Source of the DNA: a virus | Lineage: Duplodnaviria > Heunggongvirae > Uroviricota > Caudoviricetes | Reading direction: 5' to 3' (one strand) | Virus record (IMG/VR): IMGVR_UViG_3300031088_000799 | Length of the DNA: 64,000 nt | In this document: piece after piece, positions 12,594 through 61,966 of the stretch | Layout: every line of letters begins with the position of its first letter | Position numbering within the stretch: the stretch's first letter is position 1 | Notes under the pieces: model-generated | Databases searched by the model: none | Told to the model about the DNA's origin: nothing | What the model saw: only the letters and a program-made list of their open reading frames with translations | Translations under genes and position numbers: made by a program

Positions 12594-12866
12594 TTATATG
12601 AGATGCATTTCAACTAAGTTCATAATTTCATCATAATCTGAACATGAATCAAAAATACTGTCTACTAATGGTCTATTTTTCAAAAGTGCATCAATGTAAT
12701 GAAAGAATATCTCATTACCGCTTTTTGAAAAATGATCAAATCTGATCACTAACTATATATGTGAAAAATACCCATTAAATATTCGAGCAACAGCATTAAC
12801 CAATCCAACTTCAACATCAGTTAGGTTAATAACATCACCACGTTGTGAATATAAAGTTGTTGTCAT
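12594..12866 (-). pseudogene. remnant ORF: 35 codons, in-frame TAG, then the 3' end of a Ct-motif family gene (...DYDEIMNLVEMHLI). Interrupted by a solo IS right-end copy.
   Basis: One continuous frame 12866->12594 with a TAG at 12753-12755. Downstream codons are encoded by the IS right-end sequence and then a family C-terminus. Confidence 0.45.
12715..12756 (-). repeat. solo copy of the IS607-like right end (42-nt exact match to 60659-60700)
   Basis: ttaccgctttttgaaaaatgatcaaatctgatcactaactat is the reverse complement of the element's right end. It contains the TGATCA-N4-TGATCA hairpin. Confidence 0.8.
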
Positions 12867-25615: not shown

Positions 25616-26056
25616 ATGAATAGTAAAGATCGCTCAACATTAACGACAATTTATAGAACATTAATAGGTTTGACAATAAGTGGACCAATAATAGCATTAT
25701 ACATCACGCTACCATTAAATCTCCCAGTAGTACTAACAATAGCTTTAATAGCTAACTTAATTATATCGAAAAAATATTATACCGATTTAGTTCGTAATTC
25801 GTTTGATAGAGAAATTAAAAAACTACTAGATTTTTGTATTCGCTCAATTACTATTTTATTCCTAACTTCTATCCCAGCTTTCATTATGTCGTATGTTGTA
25901 ATGAATGAATACACTGTTAGCATACATATAATTGCTGAATTAATAGACTTTTTAGGATCTATCGCAGCATGGGGGTATTACTTAATAATGGTCACAAAAG
26001 AATATATACAGTTTAACAAAACAAAAAATAAAAAAATAGGAATATTCATAGCATGA
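25616..26056 (+). CDS. 4-TM small membrane protein, tandem paralog 1 of 4
   Basis: 146 aa. Shared architecture with the next three genes: ..IY..LI.L...P(I/M)IA.YI. followed by 3 more TM segments. Confidence 0.5.
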   Translation: MNSKDRSTLTTIYRTLIGLTISGPIIALYITLPLNLPVVLTIALIANLIISKKYYTDLVRNSFDREIKKLLDFCIRSITILFLTSIPAFIMSYVVMNEYTVSIHIIAELIDFLGSIAAWGYYLIMVTKEYIQFNKTKNKKIGIFIA

Positions 26057-26146
26057 AAATATATTTAAATATCTTTTTATTTGCTTCTAATTGTAAAAGC
26101 TAAACTCCATATTATAATAATATAAATGACAATATAATTATCTAAA

Positions 26147-26596
26147 ATGGAAACATATAATAGAAATGCAATCTTAAATAATATTTACAAAATTTTAATA
26201 AGCTTAAGCGTTGCTGCCCCTATGATAGCTTCCTATATTGCAGCAAGATCGTATATGTTTGCTATTTTTGTATTGTTAATGACGATAATGATCCCACACA
26301 TTATTATCTGGCATAAATATTACAACAAATTAGACAATAATAACTTCCAAAAACATATAAAAACGATATTAAAAACATTTATCATTTCTATAGTTATTTT
26401 AATAATAATATTTCTACCAACATTCATTGGAGTGTATGAAGATAATGGCACAGAAAAATATAATATCATGCCATTTGTAGAAGCATTTTTCTGGATTGTA
26501 GGATCTTTTATTGCATGGTTTTATTATGTTTCAAAAATAGTAAAAGGATTAAAATTATTAAATAAACAAATGGAGCGTAAGCATGAACAATTTTAA
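26147..26596 (+). CDS. 4-TM small membrane protein, tandem paralog 2 of 4
   Basis: 149 aa. Confidence 0.5.
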   Translation: METYNRNAILNNIYKILISLSVAAPMIASYIAARSYMFAIFVLLMTIMIPHIIIWHKYYNKLDNNNFQKHIKTILKTFIISIVILIIIFLPTFIGVYEDNGTEKYNIMPFVEAFFWIVGSFIAWFYYVSKIVKGLKLLNKQMERKHEQF

Positions 26597-27065
26597 TGAA
26601 TATGAACGATTAAGAAATCTATATCTTAAGATGATAATAATAGCAGCAACGGTTACTCCACTACTATTTATCCTATTTAAAGCATACTATTTTTTAGTAT
26701 TAACGCCAGTTGTATTAATAGCCAATCTGTATGTGTATTTGAGATATTACAAAAAAAATGATATGGGATTATTTCAAGAGAATATTAAGAAAATAATAAA
26801 AAAATTCTTAGTCTGCATGGTTATAACTGCAGTTTCTCTTCTTCCGTTAGGTTACACTTTTTTAATTATTGGTAGTGGTCAATATTATTCAACTATGATG
26901 ATTGCAGGATTGTCATTCTTAATAGGTACAATAATTTCTTTTATTTACTATTTATATAGTCTAATAAAATCACTAATGGATCTCAATAAAAATGACTTCT
27001 ATCAAGATATGGAAATAACCGAAAAAACTAAGACAATAGGTGCAGATAATGCAAACACAAAGTGA
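26583..27065 (+). CDS. 4-TM small membrane protein, tandem paralog 3 of 4
   Basis: 160 aa. Start overlaps the previous gene's stop. Confidence 0.5.
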   Translation: MNNFNEYERLRNLYLKMIIIAATVTPLLFILFKAYYFLVLTPVVLIANLYVYLRYYKKNDMGLFQENIKKIIKKFLVCMVITAVSLLPLGYTFLIIGSGQYYSTMMIAGLSFLIGTIISFIYYLYSLIKSLMDLNKNDFYQDMEITEKTKTIGADNANTK

Positions 27066-27477
27066 GTTCGAATGCTTAAAGAATATATACTCAAGAATGA
27101 CTATGTTAACAGCAATAGCACCGATTGCTATTGCTTTTTTTGGTCCATTTTTATTGTTATATATTTTAATTCCTAATCTTTTTATTTACTGTAAATATTA
27201 TAAAAATAAAGAAAATAATAGTGAAGTTTTTAATGCCCATATTAAAAATTTACTAAAAAGATCAATGTATTCTGTAATTATTTTGTTTGTTTTTTTATTA
27301 CCATTTATCTCAATGACTTTTATAGATTTTTCTAAAATATATCAAGGAACTGCATATCTTATTTTAATGATTTCAATGGTTTCACTATTTTTTGGCCTAT
27401 TAATTTCTTGGTCTTATTATCTATGGAGTTTAACAAAGTTATCATCAAGTTTTGATAAATCAATGTTTACAAAATGA
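27040..27477 (+). CDS. 4-TM small membrane protein, tandem paralog 4 of 4
   Basis: 145 aa. Overlaps the previous gene. Confidence 0.5.
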   Translation: MQIMQTQSEFECLKNIYSRMTMLTAIAPIAIAFFGPFLLLYILIPNLFIYCKYYKNKENNSEVFNAHIKNLLKRSMYSVIILFVFLLPFISMTFIDFSKIYQGTAYLILMISMVSLFFGLLISWSYYLWSLTKLSSSFDKSMFTK

Positions 27478-56158: not shown

Positions 56159-56905
56159 TTAGATATAAGTCATAGCTATAATAGCTTGTTCTCGTTTATT
56201 AAACATTTTATATGTTTGCAGAAACTGCGTATAATCTGTACCTAATAACTTTGAACTGCTAAAGGAACAATCAGTGATAATATCAGAAAGGCTTAATGTT
56301 GAATTTGTCCTTGATCTGGGCCGCAAATAAGTGACATCATAAATACTTATATTTTCCAAAACAAGGCCATCATCATTTACTCTTTTAATAGGTCTTTCAG
56401 TAATCGCGTAAATACAACCATTGATACATTTTTGATACTTTCGACCATCATCAAATCTATAAGTAATTGTTGCAATTTGGAGATTTTTTTTATCTATATC
56501 ATAATCAATAGCAATCAATTTCAAACTCTTTAAAATTATTTTTTGAGAAAAAACAACTCTGACTGGAATACCACTGGTGTTATAAGTAATACGAAATCCT
56601 TCTTTATAAATTTCATTTTCATTAAACACGATTTCCTGAAAAATATAATAATTTTGAAAAAGACCATCAACAATAGGAAAGCTTAAATATAATATACATC
56701 CTTGGTTATTAGTATAAGTTAAGGAATCATCTGAAATTTTTTCAAAACCAATAGATTTAAATAATAGAATTAACTCATTACTATCTAAATGAAACTCTAT
56801 TAAATTTGAAGATTGTTTTATCATTTTAGGTAAAATTAAAATGTAATCCTGCATATTATTTTTATTAATAATATGTCTTTCTATGGAATGAAAATCAATT
56901 CTCAT
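56159..56905 (-). CDS. Ct-motif paralog family member (...NKREQAIIAMTYI); intact homolog of the IS-disrupted gene
   Basis: 248 aa. Its C-terminal region aligns with both halves of the split gene at 57858-58012 / 60680-61297. Confidence 0.55.
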   Translation of the reverse strand: MRIDFHSIERHIINKNNMQDYILILPKMIKQSSNLIEFHLDSNELILLFKSIGFEKISDDSLTYTNNQGCILYLSFPIVDGLFQNYYIFQEIVFNENEIYKEGFRITYNTSGIPVRVVFSQKIILKSLKLIAIDYDIDKKNLQIATITYRFDDGRKYQKCINGCIYAITERPIKRVNDDGLVLENISIYDVTYLRPRSRTNSTLSLSDIITDCSFSSSKLLGTDYTQFLQTYKMFNKREQAIIAMTYI

Positions 56906-58012: not shown

Positions 58013-58094
58013 TTGGGTTTTTAACTGCGTCTCATTTTCTTGATCAAATCTGATCATTTATGTTAAAATAGAGGTATTAACCTCTATTTTTTAT

Positions 58095-58669
58095 ATGATT
58101 AAATCTCTTTCTATTGGTAAATCTGCTTCTTTTCTTGGCCTTTCTGTTGTTACCCTTCGTCGTTGGGAACGACTTGGTAAAATTAGTTCTTTTCGAACCC
58201 TTGGCAATCATCGAAGATTCTTCTTCGATGACTTGCTTAAACTTCACAATTCTAACAAATTGCATGTTGGTTATGCTAGAGTTTCTTCTCACGATCAAAA
58301 AAAAACTTAGAAACCCAAATCAAATTTTTAGATAAATATATTCAAAATGACAATAAGATTGTCATTTCTGATCTTGGCAGTGGATTAAATTTTAATAAAA
58401 AAGGTTTAATTTTTCTTCTTTCTTTAATTGTTTCTCGTAAAATTTATACCCTTTATCTCACTCACAAAGAACGTTTATTAAGATTTGGCTCGGATCTAAT
58501 CTTTAAATTATGCTCAACATTTGGCACAAATGTTGTCATAATTAACAGTTCTGAATCTAAATCTTTTGAAGTGACTTTAGCAGAAGATGTTATTGAGCTT
58601 ATGACTGTCTTTTCGGCTAAACTTTATGGTAAACGTTCTCATAAGAATAAAAAATCAATAACTACTTGA
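58095..58669 (+). pseudogene. tnpA: IS607-type serine recombinase (MerR-like HTH + resolvase catalytic domain), interrupted by a -1 frameshift at an A9 tract (58296-58304)
   Basis: Frame 1 ends ...VGYARVSSHDQKKT*. The frame continues as NLETQIKFLDKYI...KLYGKRSHKNKK if one A is added. Confidence 0.6.
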
Positions 58670-58722
58670 CTTTTAATAGTTTTTTATTTATTATTGTGGC
58701 ATTATTGAGTATTTATTTATCC

Positions 58723-60651
58723 ATGAAAAAGAAATCCAACATCAAAGAGTTGTTTGGTACTACATTAGATGATGATGTAGCATTGAACAACACCATCACT
58801 GTTCAGGCAAAGTTCAAACTTTGTCCTGAGCAGGATGTGATCTTGAACAAAATCATGGAACATCTTACTTACGCTAAACTCATGTACTTTAACTATCTCG
58901 TTTATTCAACTAAAATGAATAAATTCATGAAAGATAATGCTCTTTATATTACTAAAGAGATAAAAGTGAAAGATGAATTAACAGGTTTAACATTATCACA
59001 AAGCGTTACAACCCTTGAAACTTTTAAAGTGGCTTTTTGTCGTGTCTATGGTCTATCATCTCGCCAATTCAATTCTATTGATTTTCTCATTAAAGGTCTT
59101 ATTAAGGCTAATAAGACTTTAATGCAAGATAGATTAATAAACTTTAATGACCAACTTGATAGAAAATTAGCCAAACAGAAAAAACTTATTGGTGAGATTC
59201 ATCTTTTATCTATAAGTGATGCTTTTAAGACTAAGAAAGATACTGCTCTTTCTAGTCATAATAAAAATAAAATAGCTTTAATTAAGTTAAAAGAAGAAAT
59301 TGAAAGAAAACAAGCCGCTATTGTTCGGTTAGAACATAACATTAAAACAAACAAAGTGTCTGTTTGTTTTGGTGATCGAAAAATATTGAATCGGCTTTCT
59401 TCTTTATTCAATGATAGCAATTATGATCATGGAAAATACAAACATATCAGTAATGACGCTCGAAAAAGCTATCATACTGCATACAGAAAGCTCTGGCATG
59501 ATTCTCGGTTTAATCAATTTTTCTTATTGGGTTCAAAAGATGAAAACAATGGCAATGCTTCTTGTGTGTTTTCAAAACAGAGTGAAAGCCTTTATTCTGT
59601 TAAGATTTCAATTCCACAATGTGTTAGAGATGAACTGGGTTTATCTCAAAAGCATTTGGTGATTGACAATATTAATTTTAAACACAATGAAAAAGAAATC
59701 TTAAACAGTTTTGCTTTAAATGAACAAAGAAAACAAAAAGAAATTGAGTACACTCAAAAACTAAAAGACAAAGATCCATCATTATTTGATGATAAAGGCG
59801 AAGTTATAAGTAAAGCGACTTACTTGGAAGATGAAGGTGTTGCTATTTCATTTAGATTCATAAAAGACACTTTTGCCGATCCTAAAAGAGTTTCAAGCTC
59901 TTGGAGAATTCTTACTTCAATGGATGAAACCAAACATCAGAAAGCTATTGTGTCAAAAGCAACAGGTGTTATTGCTATTGATACTAATGTCGATCATTTT
60001 GCTGTTGCTGAACTGAATAGTCAAAGAAACCTAAAGAAAGCTTTCAACGTGCATTTTGGTTTCACTGATAGTGAACAGAATTCAAATAAAACGCTTCGCA
60101 AAGAAGCAATATTGAAATCAGCTAAAAAGATTATTAACTATGCAATAGAGACTAAAAAACCTATTGTAATCGAACGTTTAGATTTCAAAACTAAGCGAGC
60201 ATCATTAAAAGAAGAAAATACATTATTTGGTGATGCTGCCAAAAAGAAAAACCGTATACTGTCATCATTTGCATACTCATTGATGATAGAGACGATAAAG
60301 CAATTGGCCTATCGTAACGGCATAGCCGTTTACGAGGTCAATCCAGCCTTTACGTCTCAAATAGGTTGGTTAAAGTATGCAAAAAAATATGGTATATCAC
60401 GACATATGGCAGCAGCTTATGTAATCGGAAGAAGAACCTATGCCATAGAAGAATTGTTTGACCGGAATGAGCAAGTTATTGTAAAAAGCCAAATAAGAAC
60501 AATCCCTTTACTAGTAGATAGAGAAGATTGTAAAACTTATTTTGAGTACTGCAGTAAAAACTTGCGAAATTTCCTAAAAAGACAGGTTCATGAAAGCCGA
60601 GGAAAGTTGGACAGTACTCAGGTTATTAGTGGATCGGTAATAACTATTTAG
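58723..60651 (+). CDS. tnpB: TnpB/OrfB-family (IS605/IS607 accessory, RuvC-like) protein. Long variant without a CxxC zinc finger.
   Basis: N-terminal VQAKFKLCPEQDVILNKIMEHL..YAKLMYFNYLV (TnpB N-terminal motif). RuvC-I IAIDTNVDHF, RuvC-II KPIVIERLDFK. The distal motif reads RHMAAAYVIGRR. No Cys pairs near the C-terminus. Confidence 0.65.
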   Translation: MKKKSNIKELFGTTLDDDVALNNTITVQAKFKLCPEQDVILNKIMEHLTYAKLMYFNYLVYSTKMNKFMKDNALYITKEIKVKDELTGLTLSQSVTTLETFKVAFCRVYGLSSRQFNSIDFLIKGLIKANKTLMQDRLINFNDQLDRKLAKQKKLIGEIHLLSISDAFKTKKDTALSSHNKNKIALIKLKEEIERKQAAIVRLEHNIKTNKVSVCFGDRKILNRLSSLFNDSNYDHGKYKHISNDARKSYHTAYRKLWHDSRFNQFFLLGSKDENNGNASCVFSKQSESLYSVKISIPQCVRDELGLSQKHLVIDNINFKHNEKEILNSFALNEQRKQKEIEYTQKLKDKDPSLFDDKGEVISKATYLEDEGVAISFRFIKDTFADPKRVSSSWRILTSMDETKHQKAIVSKATGVIAIDTNVDHFAVAELNSQRNLKKAFNVHFGFTDSEQNSNKTLRKEAILKSAKKIINYAIETKKPIVIERLDFKTKRASLKEENTLFGDAAKKKNRILSSFAYSLMIETIKQLAYRNGIAVYEVNPAFTSQIGWLKYAKKYGISRHMAAAYVIGRRTYAIEELFDRNEQVIVKSQIRTIPLLVDREDCKTYFEYCSKNLRNFLKRQVHESRGKLDSTQVISGSVITI

Positions 60652-60679
60652 CCGTTGAATAGTTAGTGATCAGATTTGA

Positions 60680-61297
60680 TCATTTTTCAAAAAGCGGTAA
60701 AAAGTAAACAACATCAAAAATAGAGACATCTTCAATCGATTTATTCTCAACAATAAATGAATCCAATACATATTCATGAATGTGAGATATATTATTATTC
60801 AATAAATCAATAAAGTTAGAGTTTTTATTTAAAATATTTTTAGATGGAATATTGGCATAACTAATATATTTAATTTGATTTAAATTGTCACATTTAACAG
60901 AGTAATCAAGAAAATCAGAAGAAATATTTTGAGTATTGTAAGCATAATGAATATTATACAGATCACACCAATGAAAATTGATTTGTTGAGTACCTTTTTT
61001 AAGTTCACTAATGTAATATCCTTTAATGTCTTGACTAACACAACTTAAAGTAAGTAAAAAGGTGATGCCAGATTCATGTGTGAACATTAAATCATCTTTT
61101 TTTATAAATCCTAAAATATTAAGAAATTCTTCAATTTTTGAAATGGATAATTGAAAAATAACAAAAAAATATTTTTGATTAAGTATGTTTAAAAAATCTT
61201 GTTCTGAGCAGTCTAAGAAAGATTGCTCATTAAAAAAATATTCTTTCACTTTTGACTTTACAGGTTGTTGAAGACGTTCAATAACTAATTTAACCAT
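60680..61297 (-). CDS. 5' portion of the IS-disrupted Ct-motif family gene. Its last 6 codons and stop (LPLFEK*) are encoded by the IS right end.
   Basis: ...SIEDVSIFDVVYF then LPLFEK from the IS end. The homolog 56159-56905 continues ...YDVTYLRPRS... at the same point. Confidence 0.55.
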   Translation of the reverse strand: MVKLVIERLQQPVKSKVKEYFFNEQSFLDCSEQDFLNILNQKYFFVIFQLSISKIEEFLNILGFIKKDDLMFTHESGITFLLTLSCVSQDIKGYYISELKKGTQQINFHWCDLYNIHYAYNTQNISSDFLDYSVKCDNLNQIKYISYANIPSKNILNKNSNFIDLLNNNISHIHEYVLDSFIVENKSIEDVSIFDVVYFLPLFEK

Positions 61298-61312: not shown

Positions 61313-61966
61313 TCAGCAAAGTGCCATTTCTAAAACCAACGAGTCCTCATCTGAAAATAAGTCTACCAAAGATAAATAATCTTCGACTTTTGTAACTTCT
61401 CTATTTGGTTTACCCATTGCATTTAACAATACATTTAATTCATATGTATGTTCTTTAAGAATATATAGAACCTTTGTAATAACTCCATTTTCCTCTAAAA
61501 AAGAATCCATATAACATTTTTTATCATGACTTTTGCCAACACCATATCTATAGTAAATGGCACCATCATGTAATCGTGTTAACGCCGTTTTCTTAACAAT
61601 CGAAAACTTATCTTTTTTCCTGTATTCTGTTTCATACAAAGTGCCATCATAATTGAAACAATGAGAAAATACTGGTCCTTCGAAATAATAAATCATCAAA
61701 ATATTAAAGTATGATTTTTTACCTACAGAAACTCTTTGAAAAGTAATGCTATACTGATCATTTTCAACTTTTACTGTTTTGGATTTTGCAGGCATAGGAG
61801 TTTTATCTACTGAAAACCCATTAAGTTCCATAAAAAAACAAAAATCATCCTTGCTCATCTCAATAGCTAAGTTAGTTTTTGAAATATTAGTAGGATGCAA
61901 AATTTCATCAAAATTTGAAATTCTGGCAGTAAGATCTGTCATTGTACGCATGCAAAGAGTCTCCAA
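61313..61966 (-). CDS. hypothetical protein, possibly a divergent Ct-motif family member (...SLVDLFSDEDSLVLEMALC)
   Basis: 217 aa. Confidence 0.45.
   Translation of the reverse strand: METLCMRTMTDLTARISNFDEILHPTNISKTNLAIEMSKDDFCFFMELNGFSVDKTPMPAKSKTVKVENDQYSITFQRVSVGKKSYFNILMIYYFEGPVFSHCFNYDGTLYETEYRKKDKFSIVKKTALTRLHDGAIYYRYGVGKSHDKKCYMDSFLEENGVITKVLYILKEHTYELNVLLNAMGKPNREVTKVEDYLSLVDLFSDEDSLVLEMALC

Follow-up and report, generated by a model that had tools for sequence, protein, structure and literature searches.

What is a TnpB-like protein that has no zinc finger and carries a histidine where the catalytic aspartate of RuvC-III is expected? This question is raised by the gene at positions 58723–60651 of a 64,000-nt stretch of DNA (hereafter the window) from the IMG/VR virus record IMGVR_UViG_3300031088_000799 (Caudoviricetes). 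A preliminary description, made by eye from the letters, had recognized an unusually long TnpB homolog and had read it as either a diverged active nuclease or a nuclease-attenuated, TldR-like RNA-guided binder. The oddities are neither peculiar to this gene nor a sign of its decay. Judged from its sequence, the protein is a new, longer member of a known clade, RIIIr-4, which is defined by the missing zinc finger and the histidine, and we are confident that this RIIIr-4 TnpB lies within an insertion sequence (IS) of the IS607 family. The likely reading of the locus is a transposon-borne, RNA-guided TnpB that would use a conserved D420-E484-H561 site and whose zinc-finger/TNB insertion was never present or was lost long ago.

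The protein encoded at 58723–60651 belongs to the TnpB/Cas12 superfamily

The gene and the codons of the three putative active-site residues are located as follows.

58723–60651, + strand: RIIIr-4-type tnpB-like gene, 642 aa from an ATG, uninterrupted open reading frame (ORF)
59980–59982, + strand: codon of D420 (RuvC-I)
60172–60174, + strand: codon of E484 (RuvC-II)
60403–60405, + strand: codon of H561, in the column of the TnpB RuvC-III Asp

The motifs quoted in the preliminary description were all found in the translation: the N-terminal signature KFKLCPEQ...YAKLMYFNYLV at aa 30–58, IDTNVDH at aa 419–425 (with D420) and IVIERLDF at aa 481–488 (with E484). The segment PAFTSQIGWLKYAKKYGISRHMAAAYVIGRR (aa 541–571, with H561) is free of cysteine, no CxxC occurs anywhere in the protein, and the only C-terminal cysteines, C603 and C610, are spaced CX6C. 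An interruption of the ORF, which had been named as a possible sign of a pseudogene, was not observed over its 642 aa, a length that is indeed unusual when compared to about 400 aa for canonical TnpB. An alternative TTG start at 58666, which would give 661 aa, lies inside a conserved −35 box.

The assignment to TnpB was supported by profile searches. For guided_TnpB, an NCBIfam model, E was 4e-12 and the score stayed under the cutoff; a match of 42 bits to TIGR01766 ("TnpB-related protein") exceeded the cutoff of 32. The Pfam scan returned Cas12f1-like_TNB only, at a sub-threshold level, and the Pfam OrfB models stayed below threshold for the 642-aa protein. While a single-sequence search of the PDB gave no meaningful match, a family profile including distant relatives retrieved Cas12f and TnpB-like chains with a best E of 1e-7. 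This profile alignment spans RuvC-II to NPxYTS, aligns E484 to the RuvC-II Glu of Cas12f and ends exactly where the zinc finger of Cas12f and TnpB starts.

In the AlphaFold2 model (predicted local distance difference test score 85, predicted TM score 0.80), a WED/REC lobe, in which helices 113–208 form a long coiled-coil, is followed by a RuvC domain without the zinc-finger/TNB insertion. D420 and E484 stand at the ends of strands 416–421 and 481–484, and H561 is among the first residues of helix 560–571. After strand 536–539, one helix (544–556) occupies the place of the TnpB zinc finger; the helix predicted in place of this C4 finger is given as 15 residues long. The C-terminal 20 residues are predicted to be disordered. 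Structural matches are listed below with their scores and aligned residues.

AsCas12f: 13.6, 318 residues
Cas12k: 12.4, 376 residues
Cas12f1: 11.0, 305 residues
ISFba1 TnpB: 9.9, 284 residues
Mimivirus Fanzor2: 9.8, 279 residues
ISDra2 TnpB: 9.5, 242 residues
Cellular RuvC resolvases: about 11.5, 126–129 residues

A Foldseek search was consistent with these results (CasX, Cas12k and Cas12m, and Thermus thermophilus RuvC at a TM of 0.65). Together, these data show that the protein belongs to the TnpB/Cas12 superfamily, with a bilobed WED-REC plus RuvC architecture (RNase H fold) in which D420 and E484 are present. The RuvC-III Asp and the C4 zinc finger (TNB), by which the typical and derived TnpBs (DRDxN and NADxN clades) are recognized, are both absent.

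The histidine and the missing zinc finger are conserved and define clade RIIIr-4

In order to evaluate whether these features are confined to one gene, relatives were collected and aligned. In the 136-sequence alignment, D420, N422, E484, G557, R571 and E577 are invariant and the RuvC-III column holds His in 135 sequences and Asp in one. A strict motif pattern (regular expression) matched 238 of 286 fetched relatives, and in 237 of these the RuvC-III column again holds His, always 15 residues (±1) past the T-S of NPxxTS. No CxxC was detected in the RuvC-III-adjacent segment of any of the 238 motif-matched relatives, whose median length is 528 aa. The close family of the window protein comprises 18 clusters at 90% identity, with proteins of 620–670 aa that are 47–98% identical and in which D420, E484 and H561 do not vary. 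It collapses to one cluster at 50% identity (1,068 bits) and the next match reaches just 252 bits. The wider family contains at least 2,135 clusters at 50% identity with E ≤ 1e-3 (1,403 with E ≤ 1e-10), and a separate search yielded 2,799 or more clusters (90% identity). This separate search used an alignment of distant members only; with the lysine-rich window family in the alignment, just the close family came back, probably because the selection of candidates was swamped. Family members are named "IS200/IS605 family accessory protein TnpB-related protein", which is the NCBI name, or "IS605 OrfB family transposase", and no precomputed Pfam match was present among the wider-family proteins listed.

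The preliminary description had allowed that a proper alignment might reveal a conserved Asp and a zinc finger missed by eye. The alignments revealed neither. Four distant, zinc-finger-less loci do carry an Asp in the H561 column, within the motif SKDVAAAYVIGRR or LSKDVAAAYVIGRR, and this supports the register with the RDxNAAxNI motif of TnpB (loci of relatives are designated here by an L and a number).

L015 4356–5924, L017 1060–2646, L016 and L018, on viral contigs: Asp-bearing distant loci

These four loci also provide a natural D/H comparison set next to the His-bearing family.

The same combination of features has been described before. TnpB was divided into five major clades by Altae-Tran, Shmakov, Makarova, Wolf, Kannan, Zhang and Koonin (PNAS 2023; PMC10691335), who defined RIIIr-4 by the lack of the C4 zinc finger and by the replacement of the RuvC-III Asp by a conserved His. 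They found this clade to be enriched in viruses and judged it probably active, since a conserved substitution implies that activity was kept (PMC10691335). One ortholog labelled RIIIr-4 (ortholog 39, Nocardiopsis dassonvillei, 529 aa) was included among the 59 TnpB orthologs assayed by Nety et al. (CRISPR J 2023, PMC10278001). It showed a clear 5' processing site of its omega-RNA, with a scaffold of 466 nt; for another TnpB of that study, AmaTnpB, RNA processing was attributed to the RuvC site (PMC10278001). When our family profile (alignment A4) was compared by hhalign to the first 399 aa of ortholog 39 (Suppl. S2 of PMC10278001), the two matched over 336 columns with a probability of 99.3% and E 7.7e-21. 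The reverse primer used for this ortholog (PMC10278001 Suppl. S2) implies a right end ...TCTGATCACTGTTCAGGAACGGT, that is a TGATCA site with a CGG(T) tip, which resembles the right end of the window element described below despite very distant proteins. A full-text search for "RIIIr-4" retrieved only PMC10691335 and PMC10278001, and later characterization of the clade was not found in our literature searches.

The gene is carried by a complete IS607-family element

The boundaries of the element that carries the gene were placed by aligning six loci in which both ends are present and 16 in which the right end is.

58015–60697, + strand: complete IS607-family insertion sequence, 2,683 bp, with left end, tnpA pseudogene, tnpB-like gene and right end
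58015–58027, + strand: left terminus GGGTTTTTAACTG
58041–58056, + strand: left subterminal site TGATCAAATCTGATCA, two TGATCA half-sites
58095–58669, + strand: tnpA pseudogene, IS607-type serine recombinase with an N-terminal MerR-like helix-turn-helix (HTH)
58666–58694, + strand: predicted sigma-70-like promoter of the tnpB-like gene, TTGACT-17-TATTAT
60667–60682, + strand: right subterminal site TGATCAGATTTGATCA

Conservation begins at GG(G/T)TTTYTAACTG and stops sharply after ...AAAAGCGG; outside these limits one locus does not resemble another. The left terminus is identical, or differs by one or two mismatches, in L025, L027, L050, L051 and L057, and the elements of the relatives measure 2,650–2,733 bp. 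GG is both the first dinucleotide of the left end and the last of the right end (...TTTTTCAAAAAGCGG); by analogy with IS607, it is the presumed crossover core. The junctions read T|GG...GG|T and beyond the GG nothing is shared by the flanks of the six complete copies, so there is no target-site duplication. The subterminal sites, conserved in relatives, each read TGATCA-N4-TGATCA and form a perfect 16-nt inverted pair. This site was matched three times in the window for 0.34 expected, and the two at the element ends are presumed to be bound by TnpA. Copies whose proteins are 87–98% identical were found at four different flanks, suggesting that the element moved recently.

The N-terminal piece of the tnpA pseudogene matched Pfam MerR (1.7e-9) and NCBIfam transpos_IS607 (5.6e-10). 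A 1-nt deletion beside an A9 run (58297–58305) shifts its frame to a stop at 58308–58310 and, consistently, the intact TnpA of L027 matched by tblastn in two frames (58092–58304 and 58298–58666). An intact MerR+Resolvase tnpA of 198 aa lies directly upstream of the gene in L027, L030, L050, L051 and L057, and many distant family members likewise have an IS607 tnpA upstream. At the deletion site the intact relatives read CAAAAAAAAGAYCTT, whereas the window (58290–58310) and L025 (3568–3590) share a stretch that is 1 nt short; the tnpA of L025 carries a further N-terminal deletion. Window copy and L025 occupy different insertion sites despite this shared frameshift, which suggests that frameshifted copies were mobilized in trans or rescued by slippage. 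The predicted promoter of the tnpB-like gene matches 10 of the 12 consensus positions, and a sigma-70-like promoter is present 5' of the gene in all relatives.

A neighboring ORF was probably altered by the insertion. The ORF at 60680–61297 (− strand, 205 aa) runs into the right end of the IS, by which its last six residues (LPLFEK) and TGA stop are encoded; its original C-terminus was probably cut off or exchanged when the IS inserted. BLASTP found no paralog of this ORF in the window and did not support the idea that the flanking ORFs 56159–56905, 60680–61297 and 61313–61966 are paralogs. For the genome that carries it, the element is an ordinary IS.

The 3' end of the gene looks like an omega-RNA scaffold

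The preliminary description had proposed that the ORF's 3' end, together with the right end, encodes a guide-RNA scaffold. The region concerned and the flank that follows it are given below.

60499–60697, + strand: putative omega-RNA scaffold, covering the last ~50 codons up to the right-end boundary
60698–60717, + strand: right flank, putative guide TAAAAAGTAAACAACATCAA, of assumed length

Among 13 coding sequences, synonymous-codon identity averages 0.70, whereas the two windows at the 3' end (codons 597–642) reach 0.80 and 0.89. These are the top two of 27 windows, though amino-acid identity is low there. The stop codon itself is variable, with TAG in the window and TTG in some relatives, which gain five codons (adding ILPLNS), and the nucleotides at 60634–60666 are conserved. 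The disordered C-terminal tail seems to be constrained as RNA or DNA and not as protein.

RNAalifold analysis of the last 220 nt of 14 loci gave a consensus structure of 46 pairs, and compensatory changes were present in 18 of these. Its helices include 60499–60512/60516–60531, 60582–60590/60630–60638 and 60595–60601/60617–60624. Pairing is possible in 92% of the cells, compared to 84.5% in shuffled alignments and at most 42% with slid partners. The covariation score is 0.319, a value reached by none of 500 shuffles (0.175 ± 0.012), with at most 0.152 for slid partners; in helix 4 (60582–60590 with 60630–60638) eight of nine pairs covary. The window sequence alone gave a minimum free energy (MFE) z-score of −2.5. 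An alternative MFE stem, between GAGUACUGC and the conserved AGUACUC, was rejected in favor of the consensus structure because the changes that affect it, as we read alignment A5, are not compensatory. Rfam contained no match for the 3' region.

Conservation is lost sharply past 60697 across the 16 loci. The structured block ends exactly where conservation stops, the criterion by which omega-RNA scaffold/guide junctions are recognized, and it fits an omega-RNA scaffold. The proposal made at first sight is supported insofar as the region looks like a structured RNA, and a putative guide role is ascribed to the flank by analogy with TnpB systems (PMC10691335). Overall, it is probable that the protein is RNA-guided.

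A solo right end lies elsewhere in the window

12718–12756, − strand: isolated copy of the last 39 nt of the right end, ATAGTTAG-TGATCAGATTTGATCA-TTTTTCAAAAAGCGG (blastn 100%, E 5e-14)

The preliminary description had noticed this copy and suggested a second guide-bearing locus. The copy is real; the suggested role is unlikely for a sequence of 39 nt that comes without the ~200-nt scaffold region. An empty target site was considered as well and, like the second guide locus, was rejected: 8 nt internal to the palindrome are shared with the right end, but no remnant of scaffold, tnpA or tnpB is present. The window contains no other fragments of the element or of its proteins, and no tnpA, tnpB or scaffold region accompanies the solo end, which is probably a deletion remnant.

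Relatives without tnpA lie beside tRNA genes

L001 9808–11965 and L028 3834–5965: tnpA-less orthologs directly behind tRNA-Cys, without tnpA or left end
L054 854–3025: tnpA-less copy, right end followed by a tRNA-Ser variable/T-arm fragment
L052 4957–5251: tnpA-less copy adjoining three tRNA-Gln genes

In these four loci, similarity to the IS starts exactly at the −35 box. L001 and L028, from two diverged genomes, are syntenic, their flanking proteins being 58–82% identical and their TnpB-like proteins 76% identical. In both, the right-end palindrome is decayed and is followed by an identical tRNA-Cys 3' fragment and a T-run. The insertion points lie after CGG within the tRNA, suggesting a target preference. 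The tRNA-linked copies look immobilized and maintained by selection, and L001 and L028 are possibly exapted. Their conserved tRNA-Cys 3' fragment could be a putative guide, in which case the protein would act as an RNA-guided factor at the tRNA gene.

A different arrangement was observed in Bacillaceae (L004–L010 and L040–L044), where family members of about 570–585 aa occur in multiple copies per genome, with three loci in Paraliobacillus quinghaiensis. No IS607 tnpA was detected by tblastn at these loci, and their copies follow an IS1341-like, TnpB-only lifestyle. At L006, an ArsR-like gene and genes for membrane proteins lie on either side of the family member.

Host setting

The window (1–64000) has a GC content of 30% and encodes Tyr-, Ser- and another class II aminoacyl-tRNA synthetase, an NAD-dependent ligase and tRNA-Lys/Pro, next to many ORFs without a Pfam match and small groups of tandem paralogs (e.g. 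25616–27477). LpxC, SecB and PBP are present on the contigs of relatives, which points to an AT-rich Gram-negative bacterium as the probable host. A giant-virus or Fanzor2 origin had been prompted by the low GC content, the many ORFans, the aminoacyl-tRNA synthetase genes and the few Pfam matches on the 1.84-Mb contig L001. It was rejected in view of the sigma-70-like promoter, of the stem-loop and T-run after the tRNA gene in relatives, and of LpxC, SecB, PBP and ExoVII on the relatives' contigs.

A model for the element and its alternatives

From these observations, and from what is known of IS607 and of other TnpBs, the following model can be proposed. TnpA, a serine recombinase, would move the element by a GG-core crossover between ends that each carry TGATCA-N4-TGATCA, provided that the chemistry is that of IS607; since the tnpA of the window is frameshifted, the enzyme would be needed in trans. 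The tnpB-like mRNA would be made from its own promoter, and the ~200 nt at its 3' end, as far as the right-end boundary, would fold into the scaffold for which covariation argues. By analogy with ortholog 39 and AmaTnpB, the protein would bind this RNA and trim it with its D-E-H RuvC site into an omega-RNA, the guide of which would be the flank past 60697. The resulting ribonucleoprotein may recognize element-free insertion sites and act there, so that the element is kept in place or restored by copying.

On the strength of its conserved residues, we consider it reasonably likely that the D-E-H site is catalytically competent, most likely at least for maturing its own RNA. That it would also make double-strand DNA breaks like canonical TnpB has, in our estimate, somewhat less than an even chance. 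Three observations weigh against our model. Ortholog 39 was negative in the screen for a target-adjacent motif (TAM) in double-stranded DNA (dsDNA) (PMC10278001); the sample used for covariation comprised 14 sequences from about five clades, in a region that is also coding; and tnpA is a pseudogene in the window copy, so that the element may be heading to decay.

The first of these observations would be accounted for if the protein were an RNA-guided DNA binder and not a cutter, similar to Cas12k, Cas12m or TldR, in which the D-E-H site serves omega-RNA maturation or single-strand nicking or cutting. Such a protein would aid the transposon without breaking DNA, through the marking of sites or through transcriptional repression. 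Ortholog 39 processed its RNA and gave no dsDNA cleavage in the screen, there is no TNB/zinc-finger domain, the top structural matches include Cas12k and Cas12m, and the related tnpA-less copies of L001 and L028 are fixed beside tRNA genes. However, a negative in vitro transcription-translation (IVTT) screen of one ortholog is weak evidence, and its authors state that such negative results may reflect assay conditions (PMC10278001). D, E and H are near-invariant, as in an active site, the clade was judged likely active (Altae-Tran et al., PMC10691335), and the window copy sits in a mobile IS that is not linked to a host operon. We regard such a binder or nickase as unlikely here; it is the main rival to our model. 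The TldR-like reading offered in the preliminary description is disfavored for the window copy in particular, which belongs to a mobile IS607 element with conserved ends and near-identical copies at four insertion sites, and has a near-invariant D-E-H site. A broader version of the binder reading, which we put forward as speculative and improbable, is that RIIIr-4 TnpBs as a whole are perhaps not homing double-strand nucleases: their D-E-H RuvC domain would act on RNA or single strands only, making them RNA-guided binders or nickases, and the lineage may have been exapted in relatives such as L001 and L028.

It could also be argued that the gene is a decaying, functionless relic, left intact after the loss of tnpA only because too little time has passed. 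The frameshift in tnpA, found in the window and in L025, and the 39-nt solo end, which shows that copies decay, would agree with this. The 642-codon ORF is nevertheless intact in DNA of 30% GC, the protein retains all motifs at 47–98% identity to 17 other full-length proteins, and promoter and scaffold are conserved. Moreover, the tnpA-less orthologs are intact at a syntenic locus where the flanking proteins are merely 58–82% identical. These data make a relic very improbable. Even harder to credit is a RuvC-like, structure-specific nuclease of the resolvase type that would aid the serine recombinase at DNA junctions without RNA guidance, since Cas12f, Cas12k and TnpB can be aligned to the complete WED+REC+RuvC architecture over 280–380 residues, a conserved, predicted RNA structure stops at the boundary of the element and the tested clade member gives a processed omega-RNA. 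The RNA-guided RIIIr-4 TnpB with a conserved D-E-H site thus remains our preferred reading.

RIIIr-4 is a large clade, with thousands of clusters, and one of the five major TnpB clades. Whether a RuvC domain with His for Asp and without the DNA-loading zinc finger can cut DNA bears both on the flexibility of the TnpB/Cas12 active site and on what the clade may offer as tools, be it binders, nickases or RNases. The window element is a convenient test case, with clear IS boundaries, a promoter, a putative scaffold and guide junction, and close relatives that either have an intact tnpA or are seemingly immobilized by tRNA genes.

Comparison with known systems

Fanzor2 of giant viruses (PDB 9b0l) is eukaryotic or viral, whereas the window element has bacterial-type promoters and its relatives lie on contigs with bacterial genes. 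Canonical TnpBs of IS200/IS605/IS607 elements (ISDra2, ISFba1; PDB 8h1j, 8exa, 8iaz) have about 400 aa, compared to 642 aa here; the window protein differs further by the absence of the CxxC...CxxC TNB, by a RuvC-III His instead of Asp and by its long REC coiled-coil. Unlike Cas12f and Cas12k (PDB 8dzj, 7c7l, 8bd5), it has no CRISPR array, Cas or Tn7 genes nearby at the window locus. In Cas12k, catalytic residues have been lost; the window family keeps D, E and H.

TldRs, reportedly the subject of Wiegand et al., Nature 2024, are said to be TnpB-like, nuclease-dead repressors with degraded or truncated sites, found outside transposon ends and linked to genes of the host, for example fliC or oppF. 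The window protein shares with them a TnpB origin and a non-canonical RuvC-III, and the tnpA-less copies of L001 and L028 are immobilized as TldRs are. It differs in that the window copy lies inside an IS607 element, its site residues are near-invariant and it has no conserved host partner, the neighboring genes differing between loci of the family.

With the IS607 family (Chen et al., eLife 2018; PMC6188088), the element shares a tnpB that is preceded by the gene of a serine recombinase, TnpA, whose N-terminus holds a MerR-type HTH, the lack of target-site duplication past a GG core, and short subterminal repeats as presumed binding sites. It differs by its perfect 16-nt inverted subterminal pair, its inactivated tnpA and its RIIIr-4-type TnpB. 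With the RIIIr-4 clade, finally, the protein shares the absence of the C4 zinc finger, the conserved RuvC-III His, a length above that of typical TnpB and the association with a transposase, here a serine recombinase. It stands apart within the clade by some 110 aa above the family median (528 aa), contributed by extra segments of the N-terminal lobe, and by a subfamily that forms a single 50%-identity cluster, the next relative scoring 252 bits versus 1,068.

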